Positions 27,763 through 45,637 of a stretch of 64,000 nt of DNA are shown in pieces. Both the position numbers and the translations under genes were made by a program. The notes below the pieces were generated by a model that did no database searches, was not told where the DNA came from, and saw only the letters and a list, made by a program, of their open reading frames with translations. Origin of the DNA: a virus; IMG/VR virus record IMGVR_UViG_3300049016_000031, positions 7,362-71,361 of that record. One strand, written 5' to 3'. The stretch's first letter is position 1. Each line of letters starts with the position of its first letter.

Positions 27763-27865
27763 CGCTTCTAAAACAATCACGCTCCCTGGCGCTCTCGTCC
27801 TTTGCTGCCTAATTATTTGCGTAGAGTGGATTGCCGGGGAGTGGATTAGGGGACTCTTTAAGTGA
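27740..27865 (+). CDS. small membrane protein (about 41 aa)
   Basis: Sequence MEFNRIIDASKTITLPGALVLCCLIICVEWIAGEWIRGLFK. Overlaps both neighbours. Confidence 0.3.
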   Translation: MEFNRIIDASKTITLPGALVLCCLIICVEWIAGEWIRGLFK

Positions 27866-28995
27866 AAATAATTGATTGCCAACTCCTAGCCGGTTCCGGA
27901 CTTGTGGCTGCTAAATCTCTTGATTTTCAAATACAGGGTCGGATGTCCAATGGCTTCGGCGACGACGTTGTCCAGGCCAACAAGCAACTGTTAGGGGACA
28001 TTCCAATTTGGGGTGCCAATTTCTGGAAACCTCTTAACGGTGACGTCGTCGCGGGCTGTCCGCCCTGCTCAGGTTGGTCTCAGCTCAACTTCCGGGGTCG
28101 AGGTGCGCATGCTGCAGCTCATAAGTATACCTGGGACCTGATCCGGTATGCCGCTTCCTGCAATAACGGAAAGGGTCCCAAAGTAGTTGTCTGGGAATGC
28201 GTTCAGGCCGCGTACCGCGAGGGCTCCGCCCTTATGCAAGAGTATTTCGATTACCTTTGCTCCGCGACAGGGTCGAAGTACACTCTCACTAATGTCCTGA
28301 TGTCCGGTGCCTCAGTAGGCTCGGCATCTGAACGCAAGCGCTACTTCTGGGTCGCCTCAAAGGTCCCATTCGGTGTGTCGGTCCCGGACCTCGTTCGACC
28401 AGTCACAGTCGGAGATCGCCTCTACACCGACCCGGTGTTCACCCCCGACGTTCTGGGTACCTGGCCGCATTCTACCATCCTCCACTCCGACCAGCCCTCA
28501 AAGATTCTTCAAATGGTAGTAGACACGCATAGAGCGGCGGGTTGGCACGAGGGTTGGACCCTCCGGGACGCTGCGTTCCACCTCCTCAAATCGGATAAAC
28601 TTAGTGGAGCCCAGAAGCGACGGTACTTCGACGACCATGGTTGCTGGATCGGCTTCCCAGGCCCAAAGATTCTGGATTCCTCAAAACCCTGCCCTGTAAT
28701 TACTGGAGGTGCGGCTGCGGACTTTCTTCACCCCACTGAGCATCGCTTTTTGACTGTTTATGAATTCGGGCGGCTCATGGGGTATCCAAAGGATTGGGTG
28801 TGGCCCGGGACCTCGGTCCGAAAAACGGTCGAGCTTATTGGCAAGGGAGTGCCGGTGGAAAGTTGGCACTGGGTTCTTAACAATATTAAACAGTCCCTAG
28901 AGGGAAATCCAGGCGCCCTGCGTGGGTCGGTCGTCGATGTGACGTACGCCTGGCAGGGTTTGCGTAAAATAAAAATATCAGAGCAGATAAAATAA
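27862..28995 (+). CDS. C5 pyrimidine methyltransferase-family protein (DNA cytosine-5 MTase-like)
   Basis: GTG start. Motif I-like LLAGSGL, motif IV GCPPCSGWSQ (PC catalytic Cys), motif VI WECVQ (ENV-like), motif VIII SERKRYFWVAS, motif X LIGKGVPV. Confidence 0.65.
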   Translation: MKIIDCQLLAGSGLVAAKSLDFQIQGRMSNGFGDDVVQANKQLLGDIPIWGANFWKPLNGDVVAGCPPCSGWSQLNFRGRGAHAAAHKYTWDLIRYAASCNNGKGPKVVVWECVQAAYREGSALMQEYFDYLCSATGSKYTLTNVLMSGASVGSASERKRYFWVASKVPFGVSVPDLVRPVTVGDRLYTDPVFTPDVLGTWPHSTILHSDQPSKILQMVVDTHRAAGWHEGWTLRDAAFHLLKSDKLSGAQKRRYFDDHGCWIGFPGPKILDSSKPCPVITGGAAADFLHPTEHRFLTVYEFGRLMGYPKDWVWPGTSVRKTVELIGKGVPVESWHWVLNNIKQSLEGNPGALRGSVVDVTYAWQGLRKIKISEQIK

Positions 28996-30519: not shown

Positions 30520-30683
30520 AATGGCTGGTAGAAAAGACAGAGAGATAGACAAAACGCATCTTTCGTTGGACCTGGCTGAGGAGCGCGGAATTATTCACCG
30601 CGATTATCTTTAGCCATTGCCATCGTTGGTCTCACGTCGTCAAACAACTCCAAAAATCCGGGTCGTATAAAAGTGCTCGGATT

Positions 30684-31403
30684 TTGGACATCGGTTGTGG
30701 CAAAGAGGTTCCCCTCGCTAAGTTGCTGTACGTTAATAAGATGTCCCCTGCCTCGTACCTCGGCATTGACGCTAACAAGCTGGAGGTTCCGGAAATGCTG
30801 ACTACGACCCCAAAGCCGTGGCTTTCGCTTATGTCAGCTGACGTTACCAAAATAAACGCAAAACAATTTTATGAGAATGTCTTAAAGCCAAACGTAATCG
30901 TTTCATTTGAAATGCTGGAGCATGTCACTCCGCGAAAAGCCACACAGACCCTCCGGTTCATTCACTCGGTTCTCGATCCGGCCGGAAGGGCGTACATTTC
31001 CACTCCGTGTTTCAACGGGTCGGCTGCGGGTAACCACATCAACGAGATGACGTACCACGCCCTCGGTGCACTTATTGAGGATTTGGGTTTCGCAATCGTG
31101 GAACACTATGGGACGTTTGCCTCCATCCGAGATTATCACACCCAGTTAGCCTTAGATAGTCATGAGGATGAAAATCCGCAGTGTATGACGGCGTATCAGG
31201 CCTTTTTGAGGCTTCGTGATTATTACGACACCAACGTCCTCGCGACGATTTTCGCACCCCTTTACCCCCAATTTTCCAGGAACTGCCTCTGGGTCCTCTC
31301 GAACCAAATTCCGGTCGGGTACCAGCGGAGGTTCCCTTCCCTCAAGAAGGTCCCAGGACCCTGGTCGTCATCTGAGCAGTGGCGGCAATTAGGAGGAAAA
31401 TAA
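30684..31403 (+). CDS. class I SAM-dependent methyltransferase
   Basis: TTG start. Motif I LDIGCGKE at the N-terminus, plus acidic motif II/III-like blocks. Confidence 0.55.
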   Translation: MDIGCGKEVPLAKLLYVNKMSPASYLGIDANKLEVPEMLTTTPKPWLSLMSADVTKINAKQFYENVLKPNVIVSFEMLEHVTPRKATQTLRFIHSVLDPAGRAYISTPCFNGSAAGNHINEMTYHALGALIEDLGFAIVEHYGTFASIRDYHTQLALDSHEDENPQCMTAYQAFLRLRDYYDTNVLATIFAPLYPQFSRNCLWVLSNQIPVGYQRRFPSLKKVPGPWSSSEQWRQLGGK

Positions 31404-31561: not shown

Positions 31562-32329
31562 ATGGAAAGAGGACGACCCAAAAATTCCAAACATCCAATC
31601 CTTGCACCTTTCCCCACCGGAGTCTCAATTATTCACCAGGACGGCACAAAGCCATGGCTCCCCCAAGTCGATGAGCCTGTCCTCGACTACTATCGCTTCA
31701 AGTTCTACTTAGACATGGGCGTGGAACGCACCCTCTCCCGGGTCGCCTCCGAAATGCGGGTCGGTATTGTCACAATCAAGCATATTGCTAAGGACCGGGA
31801 GTGGGACCGCCGAGTAATGTCTTACGAGAAGCACCTTTTGGAGATCGAGTTCGAGGGTCGAGATTCCACTGCATCGGCCGACGGTGCTGACTGGGAGAAG
31901 CGCCGCTCTGCAATCCGCGAGGGTGCCTTCCTCCTTTCTAACAAACTTCTTTCTAAGGCTGAGAAGATGCTGGACTTCCCCCTGGAAACTATTACCGAAT
32001 CTGAGGTAGAGCAGGAGGGCGAGGAGGGTGGGACTCAAATTATTAAGACGACAGTTCGAATGCCAGCCAAGTGGACCTTTCGCGATGCGGCTGCAATTAT
32101 ACAGACCGCCAACCAACTCCAGCGTCTCGCAGCTGATATGTCGACCTCGAATACTGCCATCACTGTCCAACAGCGCAAGGTGGACTTGACGGTCCAGCTG
32201 GTCTTAGATATGACTTCCAAGGGTAAGACTATCGATGAGGCAAAGCAAAAGCTACTCGATGTCGGAATAGAGGAACAAGATTTAGAATTAGCTATTCAAA
32301 AAATCGGAACGGAGGTTAAGAATGTTTGA
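31562..32329 (+). CDS. terminase small subunit (putative), HTH-containing
   Basis: First gene after conserved promoter copy 3, immediately upstream of TerL. HTH-like TLSRVASEMRVGIVTIKHIAKDR. Confidence 0.5.
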   Translation: MERGRPKNSKHPILAPFPTGVSIIHQDGTKPWLPQVDEPVLDYYRFKFYLDMGVERTLSRVASEMRVGIVTIKHIAKDREWDRRVMSYEKHLLEIEFEGRDSTASADGADWEKRRSAIREGAFLLSNKLLSKAEKMLDFPLETITESEVEQEGEEGGTQIIKTTVRMPAKWTFRDAAAIIQTANQLQRLAADMSTSNTAITVQQRKVDLTVQLVLDMTSKGKTIDEAKQKLLDVGIEEQDLELAIQKIGTEVKNV

Positions 32330-32861
32330 TCGCCTCTTTGATTTCATTTTTGACATTCTCAAATTATTTAAGTTTTGTAAAATTTTACAACCTCAACAAC
32401 GAGGTGTTCGCGTTCGTTTGGGATTAAAAATTAAGAAAATAGGGCCGGGTTTTCACTTATATTTGCCATTTGGCTTGGATACCCTTTATTGGGAAAATGT
32501 CATGACCGAAACCATGACCACCAATCCGCAATCTTTAACTACATCTGACGGTATCTCTGTTGCAATAAGTTCAGTCATTACATTTTCTATTTTTGACGTA
32601 AAAATTTTTCTCCTCGAGGTGGAAGGTCGAAATGCAGTAATTGGCGATACCGCTTACGGTGTTACCGCTGATTTTATAAGGTCGAAGACTTGGAACGAGC
32701 TGAATGATCCTAAATTTAATTTAAGTTTTGAGATGACTCAAGCAATTCGTAATCAAGCTGAGAAGTATGGGGTTAAAATAATTTCTGTTAAGCCAGTTGA
32801 CTTTCAAAAATGTGAAGCAATTCGTATTTTAGGAAAACCGATTTGGGTGGATGTACGCTAA
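32322..32861 (+). CDS. SPFH/band-7 (HflK/C, stomatin-like) domain protein
   Basis: RGVRVRLGLKIKKIGPGFHLYLPFGLDTLYWENVMTETMTTNPQSLTTSDGISVAISSVITFSIFDVKIF matches the band-7 core (E.GVV.RFG...PG.HF.PF...V..V..R.....T.D...V.VD.VV.YRI.D). Overlaps the TerS end and the TerL start. Confidence 0.5.
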   Translation: MFDRLFDFIFDILKLFKFCKILQPQQRGVRVRLGLKIKKIGPGFHLYLPFGLDTLYWENVMTETMTTNPQSLTTSDGISVAISSVITFSIFDVKIFLLEVEGRNAVIGDTAYGVTADFIRSKTWNELNDPKFNLSFEMTQAIRNQAEKYGVKIISVKPVDFQKCEAIRILGKPIWVDVR

Positions 32862-34291
32862 TGTCAAATCCTCTTCTTGAGTATCGGGCTCTAAATGTAC
32901 AATCAGCGACAACCACTCAATGGTTTACGTTTCAGCGCGCTTATCGCCATGATCCAGTTGCTTTTTGCCACGACATTCTTGGTCTCAAGACACTGGCGCC
33001 GTACCAAGAAGAAATCATTGGGTCAAAGGCAATCCGCTTGGCGGTACGTGGTCCGCGTGGTTTGGGTAAGACGACAATGGCTGCCGTTAAGGTCCTGCAC
33101 ACGGGACTTTGCTACGACGGCGAGGATTGGAAGTGCCCCACAACTTCCGGGTCGTGGCGCCAGGTTGTAAAGTACCTCTGGCCTGAAGTACACAAGTGGG
33201 CGCGTAAGGTGCGGTGGGACCTGGTGGGCAGGGATAAGTTCAATCCAAACTCTGAACTTATGCAAACAGCCCTCAATCTTCGTACTGGTCAAGCGTTCGG
33301 AATGGCGTCAGACCAGCCGGAATTAATTGAGGGTGCTCACGCGGACGTCATGCGTTTCATATACGATGAGGCGAAATCAATTCCCGTAGCCGTGTTCGAT
33401 GCGGTAGAGGGAGCATTTTCGACCGTTGGGGACATGGGCGTCTTCGCCATTTCAACACCCGGTGCCCCTAACGGTCGATTCTTTGACATCCACTCTCGTG
33501 CTGAGGGGTATGAGGATTGGGAGATTCGCCACGTAACCCTTGAGGAAGCTATTAAAGCGGGTCGCATGGATCCAGAGTGGGTCGAAAAGCGTCGTATTCA
33601 GTGGGGTGAAACATCCTCGCTTTTCAAGAACCACGTCCTTGGCGAATTTGCTGCTTCTGAAGAGGATGGCGTAATCCCGTATGAGTGGATAAAGATAGCT
33701 AATGACAGGTGGGCTCAACTCGTTGCTGAAGACAAATTCGACCCCTTCGTTTGTGAGGGAGATGACATAGCTCGCGGCGGTCGAGATAAGACTGTGCGCG
33801 CACGCCGTCATGGTTGGGCTATAAAGGAAATAATTTATCATGACTACGCTGATACTATGGTGACAGCTGGCGTAATTGTTGCAGGTTTGAAGAATGGTGG
33901 TTATGCAGTAGTGGATGTGGCTGGGGTCGGAGCCGGCGTGTATGATAGAATTCAGGAACAGGGAATAGATGTAATCCCGTTTAACGCATCATTTAAGTCA
34001 AACCAGACGGACCAGTCCGGTGAACTTCAGTTTCTAAATTCTAGGTCGCTTGTTTGGTGGCGGTTTCGTGAGATGCTCGACCCCAACAGTGGGATACCGA
34101 TTGCTTTGCCACCAGATCAAAATCTCATAAAGGAACTAGTTGCGCCGACCTGGAGGATGAACTCCTCTGGTAAGATTCAAATTGAGTCGAAGGATGAAAT
34201 TCGAAAGCGAATTGGTAGGTCTACAGACAGTGCGGATGCTGTAATAACTTCTTACTTCGACCCAGATGGGCAGAGTATTGAGTTTTATTAG
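32843..34291 (+). CDS. terminase large subunit
   Basis: Walker A RGPRGLGKTT, ATPase and C-terminal nuclease-like regions; 482 aa. An alternative start at 32861 overlaps the upstream stop (TAATG). Confidence 0.85.
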   Translation: MGGCTLMSNPLLEYRALNVQSATTTQWFTFQRAYRHDPVAFCHDILGLKTLAPYQEEIIGSKAIRLAVRGPRGLGKTTMAAVKVLHTGLCYDGEDWKCPTTSGSWRQVVKYLWPEVHKWARKVRWDLVGRDKFNPNSELMQTALNLRTGQAFGMASDQPELIEGAHADVMRFIYDEAKSIPVAVFDAVEGAFSTVGDMGVFAISTPGAPNGRFFDIHSRAEGYEDWEIRHVTLEEAIKAGRMDPEWVEKRRIQWGETSSLFKNHVLGEFAASEEDGVIPYEWIKIANDRWAQLVAEDKFDPFVCEGDDIARGGRDKTVRARRHGWAIKEIIYHDYADTMVTAGVIVAGLKNGGYAVVDVAGVGAGVYDRIQEQGIDVIPFNASFKSNQTDQSGELQFLNSRSLVWWRFREMLDPNSGIPIALPPDQNLIKELVAPTWRMNSSGKIQIESKDEIRKRIGRSTDSADAVITSYFDPDGQSIEFY

Positions 34292-34327
34292 CTGAACTAA
34301 TAAGATATAATCAGAAAAGGTCAAATT

Positions 34328-35740
34328 ATGAAGATACGTTCGGCTATTAAAAATTTTGCACTTAAGGCTATCTCCTACTTAGGATGGAACACCTCAGAGG
34401 GTCCTATTGGTGGCTGGTTGACAAACGGAAATACTTCAGCGGATCGAAATAAGTACGCGAATGAAATAGGAAATCCTCTTAACACCCCTATGATTATGGC
34501 GGCTGTTGTCTGGCTAATGCGCACTATATACGAAGCGCCATTGTTTATTGTTACCAGAGATGATGCGGGTAAGGAGAAAAAAAGAACGTACAAGCATCAT
34601 GTCCTTAAGCTCTTAAAGAATCCCAATGAGTTTTACAACGGGATGGTAATGATGAAGGGCATTGCTGCGTCATGGGACTTAAACGGCAATGCATACATCT
34701 TAAAGTGGCGAGATCCTAACACCCTCAGGGTCGAAGCCCTGTATTACGAGCCGCATTACAGTATTCGGCCTAGATATTGGAACGATGGTGTGTATTCAAC
34801 AAACAAGGTCGAGAGGGATGGTAAGTTTATTTCTTTTTATGAAATTTACAGGCCTGATGACCGGGGGTCTTCTAATGTTTGGAAACGAATTGAGGTGGAT
34901 GACGTTATTCACTTAAAGGATGGCATGGATCCATTTAACCAGCGTCTTGGCATCAATAAACTTGCATCCTTGTTAGCAGAAATTTATACCGACCTCCAGC
35001 GCGCGCACTTTAGCGCCACTGTTTTGTCTAACATAGGAATGATTCCATTTGTTCTGTCCCCCAGGGAATCGGGGCAGGTTATAACTCAAGCGCAAGCTAC
35101 GAAGTTGAAGGAAGAACTTGAGCTCAGGTCGCAATCGGAGCGTGGTAAGGCCATTGTGGCTGGTAGGGCAATTCGAATAGATGAGCTAGGCTTCAGTCCT
35201 GCGGATATGGATTTGAGTGCTATGGCATCCATTCCGGAGGAGAGAGTCGCAGCTGTTATAGGACCGAACTCCTACGTCTTGGGATTTATTCCTGAAAACT
35301 CTCAATATACAAATTTTCTTGAGGCGCGTCGCGATGCTTATGAATCATTCTTAATACCCCTTCAGTCGTACATTGCTGCACAGCTTACTGAGGACCTCCT
35401 TCGAGAGTTTATAGATGATGAGTTTGCAAACTTGGAGTACGATTACTCAGGAGTCTACGCCATGACTGAGTGGAGGGTTAAGATATTCGATATGTGGGGA
35501 AAGGCGTTCCGAGATGGTATTGCCAGGCGGTCCGACGCGCGTTCTGCTGTTGGATTGAAGGTTGAAAAGGAAGATGATGGTTATTACGAAGATTTTAACA
35601 AAAAAGAAGAGACTCTTCCGAACCCTGGAAACCCGGGACCCAATGGGTCGCAGCCTGGAAAAGAACTGATTGATGATGGCAATGAACGGCTGAGTCAACG
35701 AGAAGATAAGGGTCCGGTTGCTGGCGGCAAAAAGAAGTAA
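34328..35740 (+). CDS. portal protein
   Basis: 470 aa, immediately after TerL. An acidic/basic C-terminal tail is typical of portals. Confidence 0.7.
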   Translation: MKIRSAIKNFALKAISYLGWNTSEGPIGGWLTNGNTSADRNKYANEIGNPLNTPMIMAAVVWLMRTIYEAPLFIVTRDDAGKEKKRTYKHHVLKLLKNPNEFYNGMVMMKGIAASWDLNGNAYILKWRDPNTLRVEALYYEPHYSIRPRYWNDGVYSTNKVERDGKFISFYEIYRPDDRGSSNVWKRIEVDDVIHLKDGMDPFNQRLGINKLASLLAEIYTDLQRAHFSATVLSNIGMIPFVLSPRESGQVITQAQATKLKEELELRSQSERGKAIVAGRAIRIDELGFSPADMDLSAMASIPEERVAAVIGPNSYVLGFIPENSQYTNFLEARRDAYESFLIPLQSYIAAQLTEDLLREFIDDEFANLEYDYSGVYAMTEWRVKIFDMWGKAFRDGIARRSDARSAVGLKVEKEDDGYYEDFNKKEETLPNPGNPGPNGSQPGKELIDDGNERLSQREDKGPVAGGKKK

Positions 35741-35795
35741 AAATTCATTGTTAATTAGCTGAACAAGCATGCTACTATTTTAAGAGAGGTTGAAA

Positions 35796-37268
35796 ATGTA
35801 TAAATTTGTCAGAAAGGATGGAATACTATCGGTCGTCAAGGCATCCGATAATTCGGTAATTGCTCAAATCCCGGAGGCCGAGCGGGTTATCTCATTCGGC
35901 GGAGAAATTAAGGCACTCAGTGACGACGGACAGATTGGTGGCTACGCCGTTATCTTTTCTGACGCTAAGACTCCCGACCTCTTTGGTGATTATTTTACTA
36001 AGTCAACAGACTTCTTCTTTGATGGGAAGAAAGAGTTTCAAATTCCCTTTGTTCTCTACCAGCATGGACAAAATCCTACGATCAAGAGTCGAATCATTGG
36101 AAAGAATGCTGTTGCCACTATTGACGATGTTGGTGTTTTTGTTAAAGCTGAATTAAATAAACGGGACAAGTATGAAAAAGCCATTCTGGATATGGTAAAA
36201 AAGAAAAAGCTTGGCTACAGCACCGGGTCGGTTCCTCACCTGGTCGCGCGCAAGGCTTTAGATGCAGATTCGGAGTCCGGTGAAATTACCTCATGGCCAA
36301 TCATTGAATTGTCATTGACTCCGACACCGGTGGAGCCACGAATTATTGCTGCGACCCTAAAGTCATATACGGATGGGTTTGAGGGTGAAGATGAATTTAA
36401 GGCACTAGTGGTTGTTCCAAGCTCTAAGTTGTTTCATGAGAGACTTAACCAATTTATTCTCGACTCCGAGGAATCCGGCCTCGCGCTTAACGCGGTTATA
36501 AAGGCTGTTTCCGAGCAATCACTTTCTACTACCGAGTCCATTGTTCAAGTTCTCTCGGGAAGTTTGCAACCAACATTGCCGCAGGTCAAGGCATTTAGTC
36601 GGGTGCTTGAAATTGACCAATCCTTGCTTATTGATATTGCAAAGCCGCAGGCGCCGACCAGTGTTAAGGGAATTTTTGAGGACGCCCTTGCTGAGGAGGA
36701 GTATAAGACGTGGGAATTGTGGTCGACCTTCAGTAAGGTAGTTTCTAAAATCGTGGCGGCGGCTAAGGCAGCCCCGCTCGCCGGCGCTTCAGATTTTGAT
36801 TATGGAAAACTTCTCAAGGAGGCCGTTGTGGAATATTCCGCGCGCCTCCTTAGTGTCGTGGATAAACAAGTTAAAACTCACCTTGAGGGTGATTGTGAGT
36901 ACAATTTTTATTTAAGGGCGCTTGCCGACCCTTCAGTCGAAGACTTTGTAAAGGCTGAGAATATGGCAATAGAAGACCACTGCTCCTTGGCGGTTAGCGC
37001 CTTTAAGAGCATTGACTCTCGCGTCCGGAAATCGCATGCCAATAGGCAGTACTCCGGGGGCGAAGTCAAGGCGGGTCGAGTGCTGTCAACAAAGTATCAG
37101 ATCGCCTTTAAGCAACTCCTTGATTCTATAACAGGAGATGTTGCAAAGGCGCATGAGTTTCTTGATTCACTCAAACCTAAAGTAGATTCGGATTCAACTG
37201 AGTCGATAAAGGCAGTTCATGAGCGAACTCAACAACGTGTTCGCAGGTTGAAACTTGAGCTAACCTAA
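35796..37268 (+). CDS. prohead protease fused to scaffold domain (HK97-type prohead serine protease, S78-like)
   Basis: N-terminal GGYAVIFSD...DLFGDYF protease block, followed by a long coiled-coil C-terminus. Confidence 0.65.
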   Translation: MYKFVRKDGILSVVKASDNSVIAQIPEAERVISFGGEIKALSDDGQIGGYAVIFSDAKTPDLFGDYFTKSTDFFFDGKKEFQIPFVLYQHGQNPTIKSRIIGKNAVATIDDVGVFVKAELNKRDKYEKAILDMVKKKKLGYSTGSVPHLVARKALDADSESGEITSWPIIELSLTPTPVEPRIIAATLKSYTDGFEGEDEFKALVVVPSSKLFHERLNQFILDSEESGLALNAVIKAVSEQSLSTTESIVQVLSGSLQPTLPQVKAFSRVLEIDQSLLIDIAKPQAPTSVKGIFEDALAEEEYKTWELWSTFSKVVSKIVAAAKAAPLAGASDFDYGKLLKEAVVEYSARLLSVVDKQVKTHLEGDCEYNFYLRALADPSVEDFVKAENMAIEDHCSLAVSAFKSIDSRVRKSHANRQYSGGEVKAGRVLSTKYQIAFKQLLDSITGDVAKAHEFLDSLKPKVDSDSTESIKAVHERTQQRVRRLKLELT

Positions 37269-37279
37269 GAGGTAGATAT

Positions 37280-38605
37280 ATGGCAGATAAGAGACGTGTT
37301 CGTTTGAATACGCTGCTTGACGAGATTGCTACTAATGACAATACTGTGAAGTCAATCTTTGATGCGGCGGATGCGCGAGATGGCGTAGAAACGCCAGATG
37401 AGAAAGCGCAATTGAAGGCATTGAGTATTAAAAATAATGATCTTTTGAACGAGGCCGAAGAATTGAAGGCGGTCCTCAAAATCCGTGAGGAATCCGAGGG
37501 GCGCGGAACACCGCAAGCTTCTGGACAAGGTCACGCAGGTGCATCAGCATCACAGCAACGCAACGGCGCCTATAAGTCACTTGGTGAGGTCTTCGTAGAG
37601 GATCCTGAATTGAAGGCGTGGTTGGATTCCAAGGGTCACGGGCTCTCTGGCACAGGTCGCAAAAAGATTGAATCCCCGGCAGTTGAGGTCAAGAGCTTTT
37701 TCGGTCGCCACTTGAGAGGTTTGCTTACGTCCAGCGGGGATAACACCGGAGAAGCTGCTGCAAGCGCTGGAGCATTCGTGTTTCCAGAGTTCAAGCCGAT
37801 TGTCGATCAGTTCTATCAGCGACCGCTTACAATTCGTGACCTCATCACCATAGGTGAGACAGGGTCGGATACGATTGAGTATGTTCGGGTGACTGGCGTA
37901 ACGAATGCAGCTGCAGGAGTTGCAGAAGCTGCGAATACAACTGATGGCAATGCATCAGGTCGCAAACCCGAGTCTGATATGGACTTCGAGCGTGTGGTTG
38001 AGAATGTCAAGACTATAGCGCATTGGATTCCAGCGACTTCTCGTGCGCTTCAAGATGCTCCGCAATTGCGTTCTTACATCGACGCATTCTTGAGATATGG
38101 CATAGATGAGCAGCTTGAAGACCAGCTTGTAAATGGTGCTGGCGGTGACGACCTTACGGGTATATTTGAAACCCCAAATATTTTGTCACAAGCATTTTCG
38201 ACAGACATTTTGGAGACAACTAGAAAAGCCCGCACCAAGGTGCGTGTTCAGGGTCGCACAATTCCTACGGCATTTGTTTTGCATCCCAACGATTGGGAAA
38301 TCATTGACTTGACTAAGGATGGTGAGGACCGGTACTACTTCGGAGGCCCCCTTGCTATGGGTACCAAGACCCTTTGGGGGCTGCCAGTGATCGAGTCTGA
38401 GGCGGTTGCAGAAGGCCAGGGACTTTGTGCTAATTTTAAGATGGCAATCCTTTGGGATCGGATGCAATCCGCAATTTCTGTGAGTAACAGTCACAATGAC
38501 TTCTTCATTCGTAATTTGGTTGCAATCCTCTGTGAAATGCGCGCGGCATTCGGCGTCATACGACCCGAGGCATTCTGCGAGATCGAAACTCAGGCAGCGA
38601 GCTAA
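37280..38605 (+). CDS. major capsid protein (HK97 fold)
   Basis: 441 aa, positioned after the protease-scaffold gene, with an N-terminal coiled-coil delta region. An intrinsic terminator follows. Confidence 0.8.
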   Translation: MADKRRVRLNTLLDEIATNDNTVKSIFDAADARDGVETPDEKAQLKALSIKNNDLLNEAEELKAVLKIREESEGRGTPQASGQGHAGASASQQRNGAYKSLGEVFVEDPELKAWLDSKGHGLSGTGRKKIESPAVEVKSFFGRHLRGLLTSSGDNTGEAAASAGAFVFPEFKPIVDQFYQRPLTIRDLITIGETGSDTIEYVRVTGVTNAAAGVAEAANTTDGNASGRKPESDMDFERVVENVKTIAHWIPATSRALQDAPQLRSYIDAFLRYGIDEQLEDQLVNGAGGDDLTGIFETPNILSQAFSTDILETTRKARTKVRVQGRTIPTAFVLHPNDWEIIDLTKDGEDRYYFGGPLAMGTKTLWGLPVIESEAVAEGQGLCANFKMAILWDRMQSAISVSNSHNDFFIRNLVAILCEMRAAFGVIRPEAFCEIETQAAS

Positions 38606-38633
38606 CTCGGTGAGTTGATGTGAAAAGGGACTT

Positions 38634-38668
38634 AGGGCGGCGGCTTATCACCGTCGCCCATTTTTGTA
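38634..38668 (+). terminator. rho-independent terminator candidate after the capsid gene
   Basis: GGGCGGCGG-cttatca-CCGTCGCCC stem-loop followed by ATTTTTG. Confidence 0.45.
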
Positions 38669-38683
38669 TGAAAGGAATCATAC

Positions 38684-40381
38684 GTGAAAACTCTTATTGG
38701 AATAGTTAATTGTCACAAGAATCAGGACCAGGCTGATAGTCAACGCCAAACTTGGATAAAGGACGTGCCTCCTGAAATTGATTATAAATTTTTCTTGGGT
38801 CGGGGGCCGAAGAGAAAGAAGGCGGCTGATGAGGTTATTCTTGATGTTGGGGATAACTACAATGATTTGCCGCTAAAGACTGTAGCAATGTGTGAGTGGG
38901 CGTTGAAGAATGGATATGATTATCTTTGCAAGGTAGATGATGATGTCTACTTACGACCTGAACGAATCTTAACCAGTGATTTTGAAGGCAAAGATTACAT
39001 AGGCCGCCTCCGTGGACCATCAGGAAAATTTTCAGCTCCATATTGTTCTGGTTTTACGTACATTCTCAGTCGAAAAGCAATGGAAATCATCGTAGGATCT
39101 GTACCAACAGACAATGCTGAAGATCGATTTATAGGAAATACGTTGTATGCGGCTGGAATTGTCGCAACTCCGGATTACAGATTTGTAGTTATTAAATCAA
39201 ATAGAAATGCAAATTCCGGAACTGAGGGCCCCCGTGAGGGAAATTTAATCATCAGCGCTGGGGAGTTCGTTCCTAAAGATATGCTGAAAATTCATAATGA
39301 ATTCCTTACTCTTAAATCTAATGTTAAAAGTCTTAGTATTGATGGCAAGTTTCAAAATGTTTCAGTTCTTGTAAAAACATTTCTTCGCGACCCCCACGCG
39401 CTTTTAACAATTCAAGAAATTGAAAGTTTTCTCCCTGGGGCTAAAATTATTATTGTTGACGACGGGTATGAATCTAAGGACAAAATTGAGCTCTACTCTA
39501 AACTCCGGCTACGTGGGCACTCATGTTTATGGATGGAGTTTGATTCAGGATTTTGTGCTAAGTCTAACATAGGTGTCGCAAGCCTCGACCGTCAGTACTT
39601 GTTAATAGCAAGTGATGATTTTGAATTTAATCCCAAGGTAAGTGAGGGAGTCGCTAAGCTTATTGATGTGCTTGACAGTGACCCTTCAGTTGGTGTAGCT
39701 TCAGGAACTGTCGATGGAAATAATTACCAAGGCTTAATTGAGCGCGGGGAGGGGTATATTAAAGAAATTCCACTAGTTCCTAAAGGAGTTTGTAGGACTC
39801 CATCTGGTACTAAGTATGATTATTGTGATATAACAGTAAATTACTGCCTTGTTCGTCAAGAAGTGTTTGAATCAGGAAGGGTCGCCTGGGATGAAGAATA
39901 TAAAATTGGTGGTGACCACTTTGAATTCTTTGATCAAGTAAGGTCTGAGGGATGGAAGGTTGCAATTGTTTCAGGTGTAAACATAAACCAAAGAAAATAT
40001 AAAAGTGCAATGGAGCACCCACAGTACAGGAAGTATCGGGGTCGCGCCAGGCAATCTCTTCCGAGATTTTTTGAAAAATATAACATCACTAGATATATAG
40101 CGTTTGATGGAAGAGAGGACGTGCTTACAGAATCTGGAGAAGTGGTTTCTAAAGCGCCGACCAAGTCCTCGATTCTTATTTCTGCAACCAAACTTCACAA
40201 GTCTGTTAAAGTAACTTCTCGTGGGACATTTGTAACTACAGAGAGATTGTACAGGACACCTTCCGGTGAAATTGTTACAGCTGGACATCCAGACCGCCAA
40301 AAATTATTTGCGGCCAAGGGAATAGGAATTCCTATTGAAATGGCTGAAAAGTATGGTCTCGTAGGAGGAAAAGATGGCTAA
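38684..40381 (+). CDS. two-domain glycosyltransferase: N-terminal GT31-like (Galactosyl_T/Fringe-like) + central GT2-like GT-A domain
   Basis: GTG start with AAAGGAA RBS. Domain 1 has SQRQTWIKD, KVDDDVYL (DDD motif) and AEDRFIG (EDxxxG). Domain 2 has KIIIVDDGYESKD (DxD), DSGFCAKSNIG and LLIASDDFEF. 565 aa. Confidence 0.75.
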   Translation: MKTLIGIVNCHKNQDQADSQRQTWIKDVPPEIDYKFFLGRGPKRKKAADEVILDVGDNYNDLPLKTVAMCEWALKNGYDYLCKVDDDVYLRPERILTSDFEGKDYIGRLRGPSGKFSAPYCSGFTYILSRKAMEIIVGSVPTDNAEDRFIGNTLYAAGIVATPDYRFVVIKSNRNANSGTEGPREGNLIISAGEFVPKDMLKIHNEFLTLKSNVKSLSIDGKFQNVSVLVKTFLRDPHALLTIQEIESFLPGAKIIIVDDGYESKDKIELYSKLRLRGHSCLWMEFDSGFCAKSNIGVASLDRQYLLIASDDFEFNPKVSEGVAKLIDVLDSDPSVGVASGTVDGNNYQGLIERGEGYIKEIPLVPKGVCRTPSGTKYDYCDITVNYCLVRQEVFESGRVAWDEEYKIGGDHFEFFDQVRSEGWKVAIVSGVNINQRKYKSAMEHPQYRKYRGRARQSLPRFFEKYNITRYIAFDGREDVLTESGEVVSKAPTKSSILISATKLHKSVKVTSRGTFVTTERLYRTPSGEIVTAGHPDRQKLFAAKGIGIPIEMAEKYGLVGGKDG

Positions 40382-40913
40382 AATATACACGGATGAAACT
40401 GAAGCAATTGCTCAAGTAAAGAAGAAGTGCGCCTACGCCCATACTCCTACTATTGAGGAGCAAGATATTATTGACTCGCTTGCGGATAACAGAGTAGTGG
40501 AGGTGTGGGAACCTGAGACTAATTATGTTGTTGGCCAAATTGTAGCTCCAACAGAAGATAGCCGCGTGGGTCGATTTCTTAAATGTGTAACTTCAGGTGC
40601 AAGCGGAGCAGAAGAGCCTGATTGGCAAATAGTTGCTGACCGTTCCTCTAGGGTGCTCGGAGGTACAATAGTTGGAAATACTGGATCGGCCCGGATTGTT
40701 GTAAGTGACGGCGATACAGGATGGGTCGACGCCGGACCTGAGACTGATTTTTGGGATATGGAACAAACGTTCTATGATATTTGGATGCTTAAAGCTTCCT
40801 TGGTTGCTGATCTCCCGAATTCCAATAGGTCTGGAAATAATTACGAATTTAATAGAATTTATCAGAATTGCATAGACCAAGCAAACAGATATGGGGGTAA
40901 GTTTATAAAATGA
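40374..40913 (+). CDS. hypothetical head-associated protein (179 aa)
   Basis: Lies between the capsid/GT genes and the head-tail genes. Confidence 0.45.
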   Translation: MAKIYTDETEAIAQVKKKCAYAHTPTIEEQDIIDSLADNRVVEVWEPETNYVVGQIVAPTEDSRVGRFLKCVTSGASGAEEPDWQIVADRSSRVLGGTIVGNTGSARIVVSDGDTGWVDAGPETDFWDMEQTFYDIWMLKASLVADLPNSNRSGNNYEFNRIYQNCIDQANRYGGKFIK

Positions 40914-41266
40914 TAGACCCCACACCAATGCTTGTAAAGCAAATGAACTACACTAGGATGGTGGGAATAGGTCTTAATGCTGTTCTCTTACTCCTAACTT
41001 CAGACACCGACCGTGGTTATGCCCAACTCCTCGAAGTTGATGGTGGTTGGACCTTGGAAGATGGTACTATTGGTCAAGGACAAGTTTTGCATATAATTGA
41101 ACACGGCGATTGTTCGAGGGAAGTTTTACTTCAAACTAAACTTTTTTCTATCAATAATGTAGTTTATGAAATAACTGGTGAAATAAATTTTGAGGCAGCT
41201 CCAGCCGGGTCACGGATAAAGGAGTGGAAATTTGCAGTTAATCCTACTAGTGAGGTGTACCCCTAG
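40910..41266 (+). CDS. hypothetical structural protein (118 aa)
   Basis: Coupled by 4-nt overlaps. Confidence 0.4.
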   Translation: MIDPTPMLVKQMNYTRMVGIGLNAVLLLLTSDTDRGYAQLLEVDGGWTLEDGTIGQGQVLHIIEHGDCSREVLLQTKLFSINNVVYEITGEINFEAAPAGSRIKEWKFAVNPTSEVYP

Positions 41267-41898
41267 TGCCAACAGTAAGTACTGGAAAACAAATATTCTT
41301 CGAGTGGGATGAGGACCGGTACCGGAGAGCTCCAGTAGCTCTGGATCGGATTGTTCGCCAAGAACTAGGCGCACTAGCTAAGTACTTAGTAGAGTGGATG
41401 AAGCAACGCGGTCCTAAGGACACCGGAGTGGCGCTAGAATCACTTATAGGGTATGTAGATAAGTTTGGCGAGGGTTCCTATCAGCTTATTCTAGAGTCGC
41501 GAGTTCCATACGCTTATTGGGGGCTGGAGTACGGCCGAAAACCGGGTGCTGCCCCTCCGTTTGAAAAAATCCTTGGGTGGGTAAATCGGAAGTCATTTAA
41601 TTCTACCCAGCTTGATGACGTGCACAAGGTTGGAAAAAGTATCGGGTCATCGTACGCTGTAAGAAAGTCACCACGAAATCCTGGAAGGAGAATTCAAGAA
41701 GTCACAAGTAATTATTCATTTACGACCTCTGAGAAAGTAAGGGCAGCGTTTATGATTATGAGAAAGATTGCTCTTAGAGGTACAAATGAACAGAGAATTT
41801 TTCTCAGAGCAATTTCCCAAACTAACACAGAACAAAAACTTGCAATTCTAGCGATCGAGAGAAGATTTTTCAGGGCAGTAAACGAAGGAGCATTTTAA
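41266..41898 (+). CDS. putative head-tail joining / neck protein (210 aa)
   Basis: Assigned by position. No confident motif. Confidence 0.4.
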   Translation: MPTVSTGKQIFFEWDEDRYRRAPVALDRIVRQELGALAKYLVEWMKQRGPKDTGVALESLIGYVDKFGEGSYQLILESRVPYAYWGLEYGRKPGAAPPFEKILGWVNRKSFNSTQLDDVHKVGKSIGSSYAVRKSPRNPGRRIQEVTSNYSFTTSEKVRAAFMIMRKIALRGTNEQRIFLRAISQTNTEQKLAILAIERRFFRAVNEGAF

Positions 41899-42431
41899 TG
41901 CCAAACGTAACAATAGCAGATTTATTAGCCGCCCAAGCGGCGCTTGTTTCTCCAATTTCCAATATTGGGTCGGTACTTACCCGTGAGCGATATATTACTG
42001 GTGAATCATATATAAATTTATTCATGGCCTTGAATCATGACCAGAGTCCCAACGGTGTGATGATTTTATTTCAAGAATTTAGTGAACAAATGAAGGGCCC
42101 TCGTATTTGTACTGTTCAACAGCGCATTAGATTTAGCTACGAAGTATTTCATAAATTCGATGATAAACTTCCAAATGATCGTACAAGTCATGAGGAGTTT
42201 ATTGAAAAATTGCAGGCGATAAACGACGCCTTGAACACAGTTGTTGGAACAGCGCAGCCTTGGAACTTAGGGATAACGACTCCTGGGGCGGATGTTGAGC
42301 ATCAATTTCTTCAAGGCGACGGCGTTTTGGACCTACGCCTCTGGGGAACCGGATCTACTGCTATCAAGACTCACTATGTCTCAATGACTCTAGATGTGCT
42401 TGTTGTAAATTCAGTTCATGTCACAGCCTAA
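41898..42431 (+). CDS. hypothetical structural protein (177 aa)
   Basis: ATG overlaps the upstream stop. Confidence 0.45.
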   Translation: MPNVTIADLLAAQAALVSPISNIGSVLTRERYITGESYINLFMALNHDQSPNGVMILFQEFSEQMKGPRICTVQQRIRFSYEVFHKFDDKLPNDRTSHEEFIEKLQAINDALNTVVGTAQPWNLGITTPGADVEHQFLQGDGVLDLRLWGTGSTAIKTHYVSMTLDVLVVNSVHVTA

Positions 42432-42615
42432 TGTTAAATTTTCAGCAAATTGTAAAAAATATGGAGCTCCGCCATCCAGGGTCGTAATTGGAGGAGTCTT
42501 AAGAATTGAATTTAATCCAATAGAGCTGATAAAGGGTATCTATTTGCCGAATAACAAAGTAAAATTATTAGTGAATAATGTTCCTGGATTTAAGAGAATT
42601 GTGAAGAAAGGATAA
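42418..42615 (+). CDS. small hypothetical protein (65 aa)
   Basis: Short ORF bridging its neighbours. Confidence 0.3.
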   Translation: MSQPNVKFSANCKKYGAPPSRVVIGGVLRIEFNPIELIKGIYLPNNKVKLLVNNVPGFKRIVKKG

Positions 42616-42619
42616 ATGA

Positions 42620-43018
42620 ATGAAGATTACTCTTGGACAGCTAGCAGAATCATACCAGGCCTGGAAAAAACTTGGGTCGCATGTAAATCCTAGTGTCGAA
42701 ACAAGGTACCGATTAATTCGCGTTGCTAAAGTCACTGAGCCTCAAATGAAAATATTTGAGGAGCAGCAACTTATAATTTTAATGGAATGCGGGGTAGAGA
42801 CGCAAATTCCTGGAAATTATAATATTAAATTAGACTGTAAAGATAAATTTGAGTCTGAAATGAACAAGCTCAAAGCAATCGAAATAAATGTTCCAGGGGA
42901 AAAATTTTCTTTGGAGTCAATTGAGCCTGCGAAATTATCTGCTCTGGATGTTGTAGCGCTCGATTGGCTTATTATTTTGCCTGAAGATCCCGTAGTTGAA
43001 AAAACTGAAGAGGAATAA
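42620..43018 (+). CDS. hypothetical structural protein (132 aa)
   Basis: Clean ORF directly upstream of the fibre gene. Confidence 0.4.
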   Translation: MKITLGQLAESYQAWKKLGSHVNPSVETRYRLIRVAKVTEPQMKIFEEQQLIILMECGVETQIPGNYNIKLDCKDKFESEMNKLKAIEINVPGEKFSLESIEPAKLSALDVVALDWLIILPEDPVVEKTEEE

Positions 43019-45637
43019 ATGGGCGTTAGTATTGTTCCAAGAATACCTGATAGAATTCAGGACATGCAAGATTTTCAGGGCCCTCCTGTTGATGGCGGCG
43101 CCCTTGTGTACAGTGCTGCGTTGTCAAAGTACGTGTCTGAGAACGTTGCTATTGATGACGAAGTTGTGCATAACACTGGGAATGAGTCTGTAGATGGGAA
43201 TAAAAGTTTTACCGGTAGTACAGTATTTAATACAATAACTCTTGGAAATACTGTTCAGATTGCTCAGCGGTATTTGTACGCTAATGTGGTTTTCAGCAAC
43301 TCCGGTCTGACTTACGGACAAGAGAATATTTATCAAAACAATTTGGCCGCGACAGCAACTGTAGCTGGAAAATTTAATGCTATAGGCAATCATCCGTCAG
43401 GCAATATGATTTTACTGTTTGGACTCAATGGAGCCGTGAGCAATATCAACGCTGGTACAGTCACACAGCTTGTAGCTTTGAGTTATTCGGCAAATTCCAG
43501 CGGCAGCGGAGCGGTTGCTGATTTGAAAGGCGCGGACATTCAAGCTAATCAATCGAGTAGTGGAAATGTTACCCGGCTGAAAGCCGTTGATGTTCAGATC
43601 AACGTTAACACAACCGGTACACTCACTGATTTAATTATTGGTGATTTTCGCGGAGGTATCGTTGCAACCGGTGGTTTGACTAATTTCTACGGAGTTAGAA
43701 TTGGAAATATTACAGGTTCCGCGACTCCAACGAACAGCTATGGAATTTACGTTGACGCAAGCATTGATAAAGGCACTGTCCTAAAATATGCATTATATTC
43801 TCTGTCGACCTCTCCTTCACTTCTCAGCGGTTCGATTCAAGCCACTTCGTTTATTGGTGATGGTTCGAGTCTGACGGCGCTCAACGCTTCCAACATCGCA
43901 AGCGGCACTCTGGACGATGCTCGGTTGTCCTCAAACATTGCGACTAAAGCCTATGCAGATGCACTTGTGGTGGGCTTGATTGATGATCGCGGAAGTTTTG
44001 ATGCAAGTGGAAATGTCTTCCCATCATCAGGTGGTTCTGGTACGGCTGGTGTAATCTTAAAAGGTGATCTCTGGTTTATTTCGGTTGCTGGCATCTTAGG
44101 CGGTGTTGCTGTTACTGCTGGTGATTCGGTTCGAGCATTGGTCGATACACCAGGTCAGACCGCTGGCAATTGGTCGGTTTTGGAAAGCAATTTGACTTAC
44201 GTTCCTGAGAACGTCGCTAACAAAGCAACCGGTTTTGGGGTCCTAAATGATACGCTTTACCCAACCGTCCAAGCGGTTTCGAGTTACGCGCAGCCGCTTA
44301 ATGCTAACCTGACGACCTACGCGGGGATCGCACCCAGTGCTGACGTGCAAACGCTTTTGGGTGCAGCGAATTTCGCAACATTCCGTACAAGTCTTGGCGT
44401 AGCCATTGGCTCAGACGTGCAGGCGTTTTCGGCGCGGCTTGACGAAATTGCGGTGATTGGTTTGGCGCTCCAGCAAATCAGAGTAAATGCAGGTGGGACG
44501 GCTTTAGAATATTTTACGTCATCGGCAAGCGGCGCAAACACTTCGTTATCAAACTTGGCATCAGTCGCCATAAATACCGACCTGCTCCCAGCCTCAACTC
44601 AGGGGCTAGGCAATGCATCGTTTCCCTTCCTTAGCTGTTTTATTGGTAATACAACGCAATATGAAAGTGTGAGTCAAAGCGCGGGATTGATTACTCATTC
44701 AGCGTTAGGCAGCGCAACAAATATTGGGTTTACATTTACTCCTAAAGGGGTCGGTAGTTTTACTATTGGAGGAAGTCAAGCGGCAAATAGTACCGTCCCG
44801 CAACTCCAAATAGGGCCATCAGCGCAAACAGGTTTCAATACTGCTTTTGCGAACCTGGGAGCATCGGGTGGAAATATTGTTGTAATTGCAGCCGGTTCTC
44901 CGGTTATGGGATTCAGTGGTGCAACAGCAAATGCCGTTATTGCTAGCCCGCGAATGTTGGCATTTGCCAGCGGCAGTAATTTTGCTACACCCGATGTCGC
45001 AATTAAGCGAAATGGAATCGGTATTATCGAATTTAATAATGCAACGGCTGGTCAATGGGCATCAATTTTAGTCGGGGTTCGAGATGCCGGCACAACTACC
45101 GTCACCAATGGCTTGACTGTCGGACATCAATCCACAGGGACACCGGCGGCGGGGTTTGGTAGCGCGATTCTGTTCAATATAAATTCCTCGACGACCGCTG
45201 ACCAGAACGCTGGTCAAATCGCCATGCTTTGGACTACAGCGACCCACGCCAGCCGCACGGCAGACTTTGTAGTTTCTTTAGTTAACGCTGGAGCGGCTCT
45301 TGCTGAAAAATTTCGAGTTACTGCTACTGGAAACTTAAATATTGTCGAAGCAGGAAATATCGTGGTTGGAACTTCTACTGGGACAAAGGTCGCGACAGAC
45401 GTATCCCAGAAACTTGGATTTTGGAATGCTACCCCAATAGTTCAACCTTCCGGGTCAGCGCAAGCTGCATTGACGAATTCGACTGGTGGAACTGGGAATG
45501 GCACTCTTGAAGATGTTGCAACTGTTGGAGTAGCTGACCCGGCAAAGATAAATAATAATTTTACAGAGCTGTTCACTTTGCTAGATGCTATGAGAACAGC
45601 GGCAGTAAATTCTGGATTAATTAAAGGTGCAGCATAA
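43019..45637 (+). CDS. tail fibre / fibre-like protein (872 aa)
   Basis: Gly/Ser/Thr/Ala-rich repeats. Conserved fibre motif GSIQATSFIGDGSSLTALNASNIASGTLDDARL. Confidence 0.6.
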   Translation: MGVSIVPRIPDRIQDMQDFQGPPVDGGALVYSAALSKYVSENVAIDDEVVHNTGNESVDGNKSFTGSTVFNTITLGNTVQIAQRYLYANVVFSNSGLTYGQENIYQNNLAATATVAGKFNAIGNHPSGNMILLFGLNGAVSNINAGTVTQLVALSYSANSSGSGAVADLKGADIQANQSSSGNVTRLKAVDVQINVNTTGTLTDLIIGDFRGGIVATGGLTNFYGVRIGNITGSATPTNSYGIYVDASIDKGTVLKYALYSLSTSPSLLSGSIQATSFIGDGSSLTALNASNIASGTLDDARLSSNIATKAYADALVVGLIDDRGSFDASGNVFPSSGGSGTAGVILKGDLWFISVAGILGGVAVTAGDSVRALVDTPGQTAGNWSVLESNLTYVPENVANKATGFGVLNDTLYPTVQAVSSYAQPLNANLTTYAGIAPSADVQTLLGAANFATFRTSLGVAIGSDVQAFSARLDEIAVIGLALQQIRVNAGGTALEYFTSSASGANTSLSNLASVAINTDLLPASTQGLGNASFPFLSCFIGNTTQYESVSQSAGLITHSALGSATNIGFTFTPKGVGSFTIGGSQAANSTVPQLQIGPSAQTGFNTAFANLGASGGNIVVIAAGSPVMGFSGATANAVIASPRMLAFASGSNFATPDVAIKRNGIGIIEFNNATAGQWASILVGVRDAGTTTVTNGLTVGHQSTGTPAAGFGSAILFNINSSTTADQNAGQIAMLWTTATHASRTADFVVSLVNAGAALAEKFRVTATGNLNIVEAGNIVVGTSTGTKVATDVSQKLGFWNATPIVQPSGSAQAALTNSTGGTGNGTLEDVATVGVADPAKINNNFTELFTLLDAMRTAAVNSGLIKGAA

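Follow-up and report, generated by a model that had tools for sequence, protein, structure and literature searches.

A GT31-like/GT12-like dual glycosyltransferase encoded in the head module of an uncultivated phage, a candidate for virion glycosylation

Glycosylation of virion proteins by phage-encoded glycosyltransferases has been described for the mycobacteriophages Che8, Corndog and others (Freeman et al. 2023, Cell Host Microbe 31:1216, as cited in PMC11256854 and PMC12619734), and in the accounts of that work it is established only in actinobacteriophages, namely some mycobacteriophages, with enzymes unrelated to the one described here. A second reference point is A064R of chlorovirus PBCV-1, a protein with two glycosyltransferase domains and a methyltransferase domain that builds the glycan of the capsid protein Vp54 (PMC7019647). 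Here we analyze a 64,000-nucleotide stretch of viral DNA (IMG/VR record IMGVR_UViG_3300049016_000031, positions 7,362 to 71,361; hereafter the window), in which the gene for an HK97-fold major capsid protein (MCP) is followed by a gene for a two-domain glycosyltransferase (hereafter GT; Table 1). As judged from its sequence, the product is a putative bifunctional inverting enzyme that combines a GT31-like domain of predicted beta-1,3-type chemistry with a GT12/GT2-like domain of predicted beta-1,4-HexNAc-type chemistry, and our best reading, tentative and held at a little less than even confidence, is that it glycosylates virion proteins. No account of the GT31-like/GT12-like fusion, of its head-module tail or of its phage-only family was found in the literature searched.

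The first domain has a GT-A fold with all three GT31 motifs (RxxW, DxD and EDxxxG) and matches Pfam Galactosyl_T (PF01762) with E=1.3e-12 and 48.4 bits against a cut-off of 23, the match spanning only residues 21-97. This domain begins at residue 1, and the type II membrane anchor and stem of eukaryotic GT31 members were not found in the protein. The second domain scores 22.0 bits against Pfam Glycos_transf_2 (PF00535), slightly below the cut-off of 23.3, with a precomputed PF00535 match present in many homologues; its sole match in a phmmer search of the PDB is the human GT12 enzyme B4GALNT1 (residues 226-336, E=3.9e-5, with the DxD motif aligned), and by its similarity to that enzyme in both sequence and fold it is more precisely GT12-like than GT2-like. 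The known glycosyltransferases matched to the GT domains are, with the value for each in parentheses, B3GalT6 (22.4), B3GalT5 (22.1), B4GALNT1 (21.8), CHSY3 (21.0), B3GNT2 (19.4), C1GalT1 (19.2), Manic Fringe (19.1), ppGalNAc-T1 (17.6), TarP (16.6) and domain 1 of PBCV-1 A064R (13.2). A sequence-only reading of this DNA had proposed a dual enzyme of GT31-like and GT-A/GT2-like domains in a 565-residue open reading frame (ORF); its coordinates, strand and length agree exactly with ours, the domain assignment is borne out by Pfam, by phmmer against the PDB and by motif conservation, and the hallmarks that it named (RQTW, DDD, EDRF, VDDG, DSGF and SDDF) were all located in the protein.

An alignment of 42 homologues leaves D85 and D87 (DDD) and D147 (ED) invariant in domain 1, as well as D259/D260 (DDG), D287 (DSG), D311/D312 (SDD) and H412 in domain 2, which argues that both catalytic centers are under selection. 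The polypeptide carries two GT-A domains with intact DxD centers, as bifunctional glycosaminoglycan-type polymerases require. The same alignment shows near-invariant residues from residue 1 on (C10, R21, T23 and W24), and since the first 27 residues are kept in homologues, the long GTG start is right and the shorter JGI gene call (P0001), which begins at V28, is truncated. The highest 19-residue Kyte-Doolittle window reaches 1.31, leaving the protein without a hydrophobic segment and therefore predicted to be soluble, and its isoelectric point is near neutral at 7.9.

The family to which the GT belongs is essentially phage-only and known only from uncultivated viruses, of several lineages. A search of a large protein database returned at least 170 homologues, all on metagenomic or viral contigs, most of them about 485 residues long, with one subset of 560-625 residues that bears a C-terminal extension and another of about 700-800 residues that bears a fused Methyltransf_23 domain. 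An exhaustive search of 1.84 billion cluster representatives (50% clustering) gave 158 representatives at E<=1e-30, and the two GT domains are found fused, alone, in reverse order and within multidomain proteins of 700-1500 residues. A tblastn search with the GT found no match in 50,697 phage isolate genomes, nor did megablast with the 12.8-kb head/neck block (32843-45637) find one among phage isolates; the PHROGs collection gave no family for it, and among 185,579 bacterial and archaeal species genomes there is a single match, on a 4-kb contig of a metagenome-assembled genome.

Gene neighborhoods of up to 10 kb on each side of the GT gene were compared in 22 IMG/VR loci and in several contigs found by exact protein look-up, and in every locus examined the gene lies inside a structural module. 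It directly follows the MCP gene in 11 loci that span about four capsid sub-lineages (the window, L001, L004, L005, L011/L012, L106, L107 and L286-L288), with a homing-endonuclease insertion separating the two in L288, and in 13 siphovirus loci it stands directly after the last tail-fiber gene (Laminin_G_3), with the major tail protein and a long tape-measure-like ORF encoded farther upstream. Relatives add 28 extra GT31-like single-domain ORFs and six split domain-2 ORFs, together with partner genes for Methyltransf_24, O-methyltransferase and RMNT_CmcI rhamnosyl O-methyltransferase, eight genes for GDP-mannose 4,6-dehydratase (GMD)/epimerase (best E=6e-137), and genes for GT11, GT6, GT17, GT2 and DegT aminotransferase, while fusions of two GT domains with a C-terminal S-adenosylmethionine (SAM) methyltransferase occur in P0042, P0044, P0082, P0086 and P0090. 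In L005 the order runs from MCP and GT through a collagen-repeat/'SAPTFTG'-repeat fiber, an epimerase and a GT31-like GT to a gp6-type head-tail connector, and the fiber (L005:11435-12622) comprises a collagen triple helix of 46 G-x-y repeats and, after it, some ten 'SAPTFTG'-type Ser/Thr-rich repeats. These clusters look like toolkits for defined heteroglycans with methylated or 6-deoxy sugars, and the window holds the minimal version, the dual GT alone. Such sugar chemistry has been reported for chlorovirus glycoprotein glycans, and it is also a feature of mycobacteriophage virions and of the Bacillus collagen-like glycoprotein BclA.

Several further observations concern these loci. L009 has another collagen-like ORF (L009:8795-9337), placed two genes 5' of its GT, and the collagen-like proteins of L005 and L009 are candidates for glycosylated head or tail fibers. 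Contigs L021-L025 (64-112 kb) carry large glycosylation islands whose two GT domains are encoded by separate ORFs and accompanied by up to six GT31-like paralogues, and in L022 genes for GT11 (fucosyltransferase-like), GT6 (blood-group-transferase-like), GT2 and GDP-mannose dehydratase/epimerase were confirmed. At least in L013-L015 the sugar cluster is followed by a Glucosaminidase-type gene, probably an endolysin. The insertion in L288 (L288:8123-9930) comprises an Endonuclease_7 gene and an opposite-strand gene of 386 codons, and the large terminase of that locus (L288:711-3434) is 907 residues long with a faint LAGLIDADG match that may be an intein, which suggests mobile-endonuclease traffic in its head module. 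Among 150 neighbor ORFs analyzed with Pfam, four downstream of family GTs encode integrases, so some carriers are temperate. A neighborhood scan anchored on the large terminase (TerL) in 80 loci revealed a mosaic module without common neighbors and was uninformative.

The C-terminal extension of the GT ties the enzyme to the head module in a further way. Its residues 512-559 match a free-standing ORF of about 110 residues, here called X (L026:8688-9017; blastp 1e-10, 42% identity), and in the GT-less relatives L026, L028 and L033 X directly precedes the homologue of the 179-residue head-module gene that follows the GT in the window. The core motif of X is ERLYL..dG.VV...DP....LLVAKG..iP...A..YGL; its N terminus is Cys-rich in L026 and L033, an acidic tail ending in a basic patch is present in the three free-standing copies, and stand-alone X proteins of 72-192 residues are labeled at most 'hypothetical protein'. 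Between MCP and X the GT-less relatives have two to three small unannotated ORFs of 118-296 residues; in the window lineage their place is taken by the dual GT, joined in frame to X, and an assembly artifact is excluded because all of the ten or more homologues with 44-63% identity share the fusion. By its position, X could be a head-associated module that tethers the GT to the assembling head, and the interval between MCP and X may be a variable 'capsid surface' slot. Taken together, the restriction of the family to phages, its place in structural modules, its O-methyltransferase, 6-deoxyhexose and GT partners and its fusion to a head-module protein give real if indirect support to virion glycosylation, the role that the sequence-only reading had advanced.

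The gene order around the GT points to expression within the head operon. Pfam and PHROG assignments of its neighbors agree with the earlier placement of the gene between the HK97-fold capsid gene and the head-tail genes, and a strong terminator-like hairpin lies after the MCP stop codon and ahead of the GT start, where it probably attenuates transcription from MCP into GT and sets the ratio of capsid to downstream products. At the other end, the ATG of the 179-residue gene overlaps the GT stop codon by 8 nt and an AGGAGG lies inside the GT 3' end, an arrangement that suggests translational coupling of GT to this head gene, and we infer that the GT is made in small amounts, by read-through within the operon. 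The 179-residue gene is kept directly after GT, or after X, in all relatives; its product has a weak PHROG 'head decoration' match (residues 34-89, E=9e-8), and its segment WEPETNYVVGQIV...RFLKC...GAEEPDW may resemble a CBM5/12-type carbohydrate-binding motif. No further glycosyltransferase, no sugar-nucleotide gene and no integrase were recognized among the window ORFs scanned against Pfam.

Table 1. Features of the window and free-standing copies of X in related loci. Positions are those of the window unless a locus is named.
Feature	Position	Strand	Remarks
Thymidylate-synthase (TS) homologue	425-1186	-	Catalytic Cys146 and Asp169 kept, N177->D (aligned to E. coli ThyA)
5-Hydroxymethyldeoxyuridine (5-hmdU) DNA kinase-like gene	26023-26841	+	HMUDK_hel, E=9e-21; opens late block
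C5-cytosine DNA methylase (C5-MTase)	27862-28995	+	Opens late block, just before packaging genes
SAM-dependent methyltransferase (Methyltransf_23)	30527..31403	+	Frameshift near 30609
TerL	32843-34291		
Portal	34328-35740		
Protease/scaffold-like	35790-37268		
HK97-fold MCP	37280..38605	+	Pfam Phage_capsid E=1e-41; phrog_10
Intrinsic-terminator-like hairpin and T-run	38635..38669 (hairpin 38635-38659)	+	9-bp stem, 8 G-C pairs
Shine-Dalgarno-like AAGGA	38672..38676	+	7 nt 5' of the GTG start of GT
Dual GT gene	38684..40381	+	565 aa, GTG start
Domain 1, residues 1-215	38684..39328	+	GT31/Fringe-like GT-A
Domain 1 motif RQTW, residues 21-24	38744-38755	+	
Domain 1 motif DDD, residues 85-87	38936-38944	+	
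Domain 1 motif EDRF, residues 146-149	39119-39130	+	
Domain 2, residues 226-465	39359..40078	+	GT12/GT2-like GT-A
Domain 2 motif VDDG	39455-39466	+	
Domain 2 motif DSGF	39542-39553	+	
Domain 2 motif SDDF (DxD)	39611-39622	+	
Domain 2 motif GGDH	39908-39919	+	
C-terminal extension of GT, residues 486-565	40139..40378	+	Absent from ~485-aa homologues
X-homologous part of GT, residues 512-559	40217-40360	+	SRGTFVTTERLYRTPSGEIVTAGHPDRQKLFAAKGIGIPIEMAEKYGL
179-aa head-module gene	40374..40913	+	
Head-tail genes	Downstream to 42431		
HK97-gp10-like gene	41266-41898		
872-aa fiber	43019-45637	+	
Tail genes	Further downstream of fiber		
Lysozyme	59187-60020		
Free-standing X copies	L026:8688-9017; L028:8684-9028; L033:8142-8639		

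Elsewhere in the late region, the Methyltransf_23 gene 5' of the terminase, 7 kb upstream of GT, is kept in the GT-bearing lineage (window, L001 and L286), and its product is a possible sugar-methylating partner of the GT. Aligned with the intact 296-residue L001 homologue, the window copy passes from frame 2 (residues 7-34) to frame 3 (residues 34-293), and this break may stem from a sequencing error, mark a pseudogene or reflect programmed frameshifting. The window methyltransferases at 30684-31403 and 12211-13161 were compared with the methyltransferase domain fused in P0044 and rejected as its counterparts, only the generic SAM motif being shared (E=0.08 and 0.03). A SPFH/Band 7 domain protein (E=6e-19) is encoded at 32322-32861 (+ strand), overlapping the TerL start, where a small terminase would be expected. 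The large fiber is rich in Ser, Thr, Gly and Ala (20% Ser+Thr) and has a BppL_N lower-baseplate N-terminal motif, and its gene lies between head-tail joining and tail-tube/tape-measure genes, an unusual site for a fiber.

As regards the acceptor, the C terminus of the window MCP reads ...AFCEIETQAAS, its last 15 residues ending ...RPEAFCEIETQAAS. The 11 GT-adjacent MCPs all have a terminal Ser (ETQAAS, ETQEPS, TQDPS, ETVSGGS, GGFPFGS, GGFPYGS), whereas none of the roughly 27 closest GT-less MCP relatives (43-53% identity) has one, their ends being ...DLTA, ...ITL and similar. This echoes the mycobacteriophages, whose glycans sit on the C termini of capsid and tail-tube subunits (Freeman 2023, as summed up in PMC12619734). 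The major tail proteins of GT-bearing siphoviruses (L007-L018, e.g., L008:497-1072) end VAS, GAS, SGS, AGS, FGT or EAS, and terminal Ser/Thr may be a simple family trait of these proteins.

These data are compatible with a model in which the GT would be transcribed late by read-through of the terminator after the capsid gene and would act in the cytoplasm during head assembly, taking UDP-sugars from the host pool, as proposed because no sugar-nucleotide gene turned up among the window ORFs scanned. A virion structural protein would receive two sugars in succession, or else a short repeating unit, the likeliest acceptor being the exposed C-terminal tail of the MCP (...ETQAAS) and the next candidate the Ser/Thr-rich fiber, with the X module docking the GT onto the assembling head. 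The virion would thereby gain a coat of glycans whose function corresponds to that of the decoration-type genes found at this slot in GT-less relatives. The fully specified version, where X recruits the GT to the head and the GT lays a beta-3/beta-4 glycan on the MCP C-terminal tail, replacing protein decoration genes, is distinctly doubtful.

A number of points weigh against virion glycosylation. Every acceptor named above is a candidate put forward from sequence and position, and the terminal-Ser correlate is weak and only partly specific: a more distant GT-less MCP clade also ends ...SGS, making the signal unspecific there, and the comparison takes in few GT-bearing lineages. A tail-tube control failed, as nearly all members of that family end in Ser, probable GT-less ones included (VAPHS), and the 10-kb flank was too short to reach the GT in several loci; in the window itself the tail-tube candidate has the C terminus ...SIDA. 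Relatives in GT31 and GT12 act by lengthening pre-existing glycans, and no known Ser/Thr-initiating glycosyltransferase was recognized among the Pfam-scanned window ORFs, so that one of the two GT domains would have to initiate. The tblastn search of phage isolates also found no sequence similarity to any mycobacteriophage GT. Pfam and PHROGs gave nothing significant for X or for the slot ORFs of GT-less relatives, which leaves the label 'decoration genes' a positional guess. Finally, the genome also has a probable cytosine-modification pathway that could need a glycosyltransferase.

This last point leads to DNA glycosylation, where the GT would add one or two sugars to a C5-modified cytosine in replicated DNA before packaging, as in T-even phages and as with the GT-A DNA glycosyltransferases described of late, a role that we consider unlikely and yet live. 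The best PDB match of the window's TS homologue is the CMP 5-hydroxymethylase MilA, and its N177->D substitution is a cytosine-specificity signature by the criteria of PMC13326640; it is probably a deoxycytidine monophosphate (dCMP)-modifying enzyme, a hydroxymethylase rather than a 5-hydroxycytosine synthase, and its sequence suggests that the phage makes 5-hydroxymethyl-dCMP or a similar C5-modified dCMP. The HMUDK-like kinase and C5-MTase genes lie 10-12 kb upstream of the GT, which is the one glycosyltransferase recognized in the Pfam scan of window ORFs. Phage GT-A DNA glycosyltransferases share the pattern R...DDD...ED[YF] with the kinetoplastid enzyme JGT, and domain 1 has it as well; some clusters of these enzymes adjoin structural genes, and DNA that bears di- or trisaccharides has been described (bioRxiv 10.1101/2023.12.21.572611). 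Homologues of the window's TS-like, HMUDK-like and C5-MTase genes were, however, found in no GT-family locus outside the window/L001 lineage within 10 kb on each side, nor does any such family figure within the 25 commonest Pfam families of the 150 downstream neighbor ORFs, and the integrases among those neighbors mark some carriers as temperate. In RB69, DLP3 and RL38J1 the 5-hydroxycytosine and 5-hydroxymethylcytosine glycosylases match cellular glycosyltransferases of the GT-B type and are encoded beside a TS homologue and a nucleotide kinase, whereas in the window the TS homologue is 38 kb from the GT and on the other strand. Characterized DNA-modifying GT-A enzymes are single GT2/TarP/JGT-like domains, whereas domain 1 is clearly GT31-like in a protein of near-neutral isoelectric point; the head-module fusion has no obvious role in DNA modification, and O-methyltransferase, GMD and fucosyltransferase partners suit surface glycans better. 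No TET_JBP match was present among the window ORFs scanned, and a hidden GT-B DNA glycosyltransferase, sought in three unannotated early ORFs by phmmer against the PDB (a weak, sequence-only search), was not found. A portal-based scan of 80 loci showed GT-less head-module relatives to be without HMUDK, C5-MTase and Methyltransf_23 homologues within 10 kb upstream, and it leaves the choice between DNA and protein undecided because only one GT-bearing lineage is comparable. The sequence-only reading had favored protein over DNA substrates, and protein stays ahead in our assessment, with the alternative kept alive by the probable C5-modified dCMP; its description of the DNA-modification genes as cytosine-related is largely borne out by the N177->D substitution and the C5-MTase, with a 5-hmdU-kinase-like gene in addition. 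The joint presence of a dCMP-type TS homologue and an HMUDK-like kinase is an unexplained combination. L001 shows the same HMUDK-like/C5-MTase arrangement with an Endonuclease_7 gene in between, and a DUF4406 (nucleoside deoxyribosyltransferase-like) gene lies beside the TS homologue at 1189-1620.

Quite unlikely, in our estimate, is a modification of host envelope glycans, by which the GT would extend a lipid-linked or cell-wall glycan such as an O-antigen, teichoic acid or capsule unit and so alter the phage receptor, with the effect of shutting out superinfecting phages or of keeping progeny from being lost on debris. The 13 loci with the GT cluster directly after receptor-binding tail-fiber genes, some with integrases, are in keeping with it, as are the bacterial GT31, GT2 and GT12 relatives that act on lipid-linked glycans and the GMD, GT11 and O-methyltransferase partners typical of O-antigen loci. 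The window GT, however, is in the head operon, shares the orientation of the late genes and is coupled to the head gene that follows, so that both its site and its timing would suit receptor conversion poorly; the enzyme is without a membrane segment, no flippase, Wzy or GtrA-like partner was found in the window scans, and the near absence of the family from bacterial and archaeal genomes, prophages included, sets it apart from classic seroconversion genes. Nor would this reading explain why the enzyme is fused to a head-module protein. A processive polymerase, whose domains would alternate as in chondroitin synthase, K4CP or LARGE1 to make a repeating beta-3/beta-4 disaccharide polymer, free or protein-primed, is compatible with the two-GT-A architecture, and the top whole-chain Foldseek matches are indeed two-GT-A enzymes (LH3, CHSY3-CHPF, LARGE1, K4CP and mimivirus R699). 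The TM-scores of these matches are only 0.25-0.33 and the root-mean-square deviations as large as 17-28 A, which indicates that the two domains are arranged otherwise than in K4CP/CHSY-type enzymes, and the many single-domain GTs of different families in relatives point to a defined heteroglycan rather than a homopolymeric repeat. We regard a polymerase as very unlikely; were its primer a virion protein, it would merge with virion glycosylation.

If X-targeted capsid glycosylation is true, it would be the first virion glycosylation outside actinobacteriophages, carried out by an enzyme with a targeting domain of its own, and would reveal a GT31/GT12 toolkit confined to phages and spread over many of those from soil and water. 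The GT is a minimal member of a family with at least 158 clusters at 50% identity in which the domains are fused, split and multiplied, and if this family glycosylates virions, phage glycan coats would be far commoner than thought, which would matter for the stability and adsorption of phages, for their recognition by the immune system during therapy and for the annotation of metagenomes. Glycoengineering would then also gain soluble GT-A enzymes that carry out two steps by GT31 and GT12 chemistry. Were DNA the substrate instead, the GT would represent a new class of two-domain DNA glycosyltransferases acting on a cytosine derivative.

Compared with known systems, the GT resembles phage GT-A DNA glycosyltransferases and kinetoplastid JGT in its GT-A fold, in the R...DDD...ED[YF] pattern and, with the phage enzymes, in being phage-encoded, sometimes near structural genes. 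Those phage enzymes are, however, single domains of about 270 residues encoded beside C5-MTase and 5mYOX, or ThyS (Pyle et al., bioRxiv 10.1101/2023.12.21.572611), whereas the window GT is a fusion without an adjacent base-hydroxylating enzyme and with the C5-MTase 10 kb upstream. K4CP, CHSY3-CHPF and LARGE1 likewise have two GT-A domains per chain and differ in domain orientation and in the GT families involved. The best structural and sequence matches are animal GT31 enzymes (B3GalT5/6, C1GalT1 and Fringe) and the GT12 enzyme B4GALNT1, with the motifs RxxW, DDD, EDxxxG and DxD kept; these are single-domain type II membrane proteins of the Golgi, whereas the phage protein is predicted to be a soluble cytoplasmic fusion, at about 20-26% identity. 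The beta-4-GalNAc-type and beta-3-Gal-type domains together resemble, speculatively, consecutive steps of ganglio-series synthesis. With the mycobacteriophages, the locus shares phage-encoded GTs with methyltransferase partners (here seen in relatives, the window having only the frameshifted Methyltransf_23 gene), a tailed-phage background and HK97-type capsids; it differs in its GT31-like/GT12-like fusion with a head-module tail and in its position immediately after the MCP, its GC content is about 45%, and the only actinophage GT matched at fold level is that of Gordonia phage Sixama, at 13% identity. Finally, chlorovirus A064R and the phage GT are both soluble multidomain enzymes that combine two GT domains, to which A064R, like some members of the phage family, adds a C-terminal SAM methyltransferase, and both enzymes are virus-encoded and independent of the host endoplasmic reticulum and Golgi.

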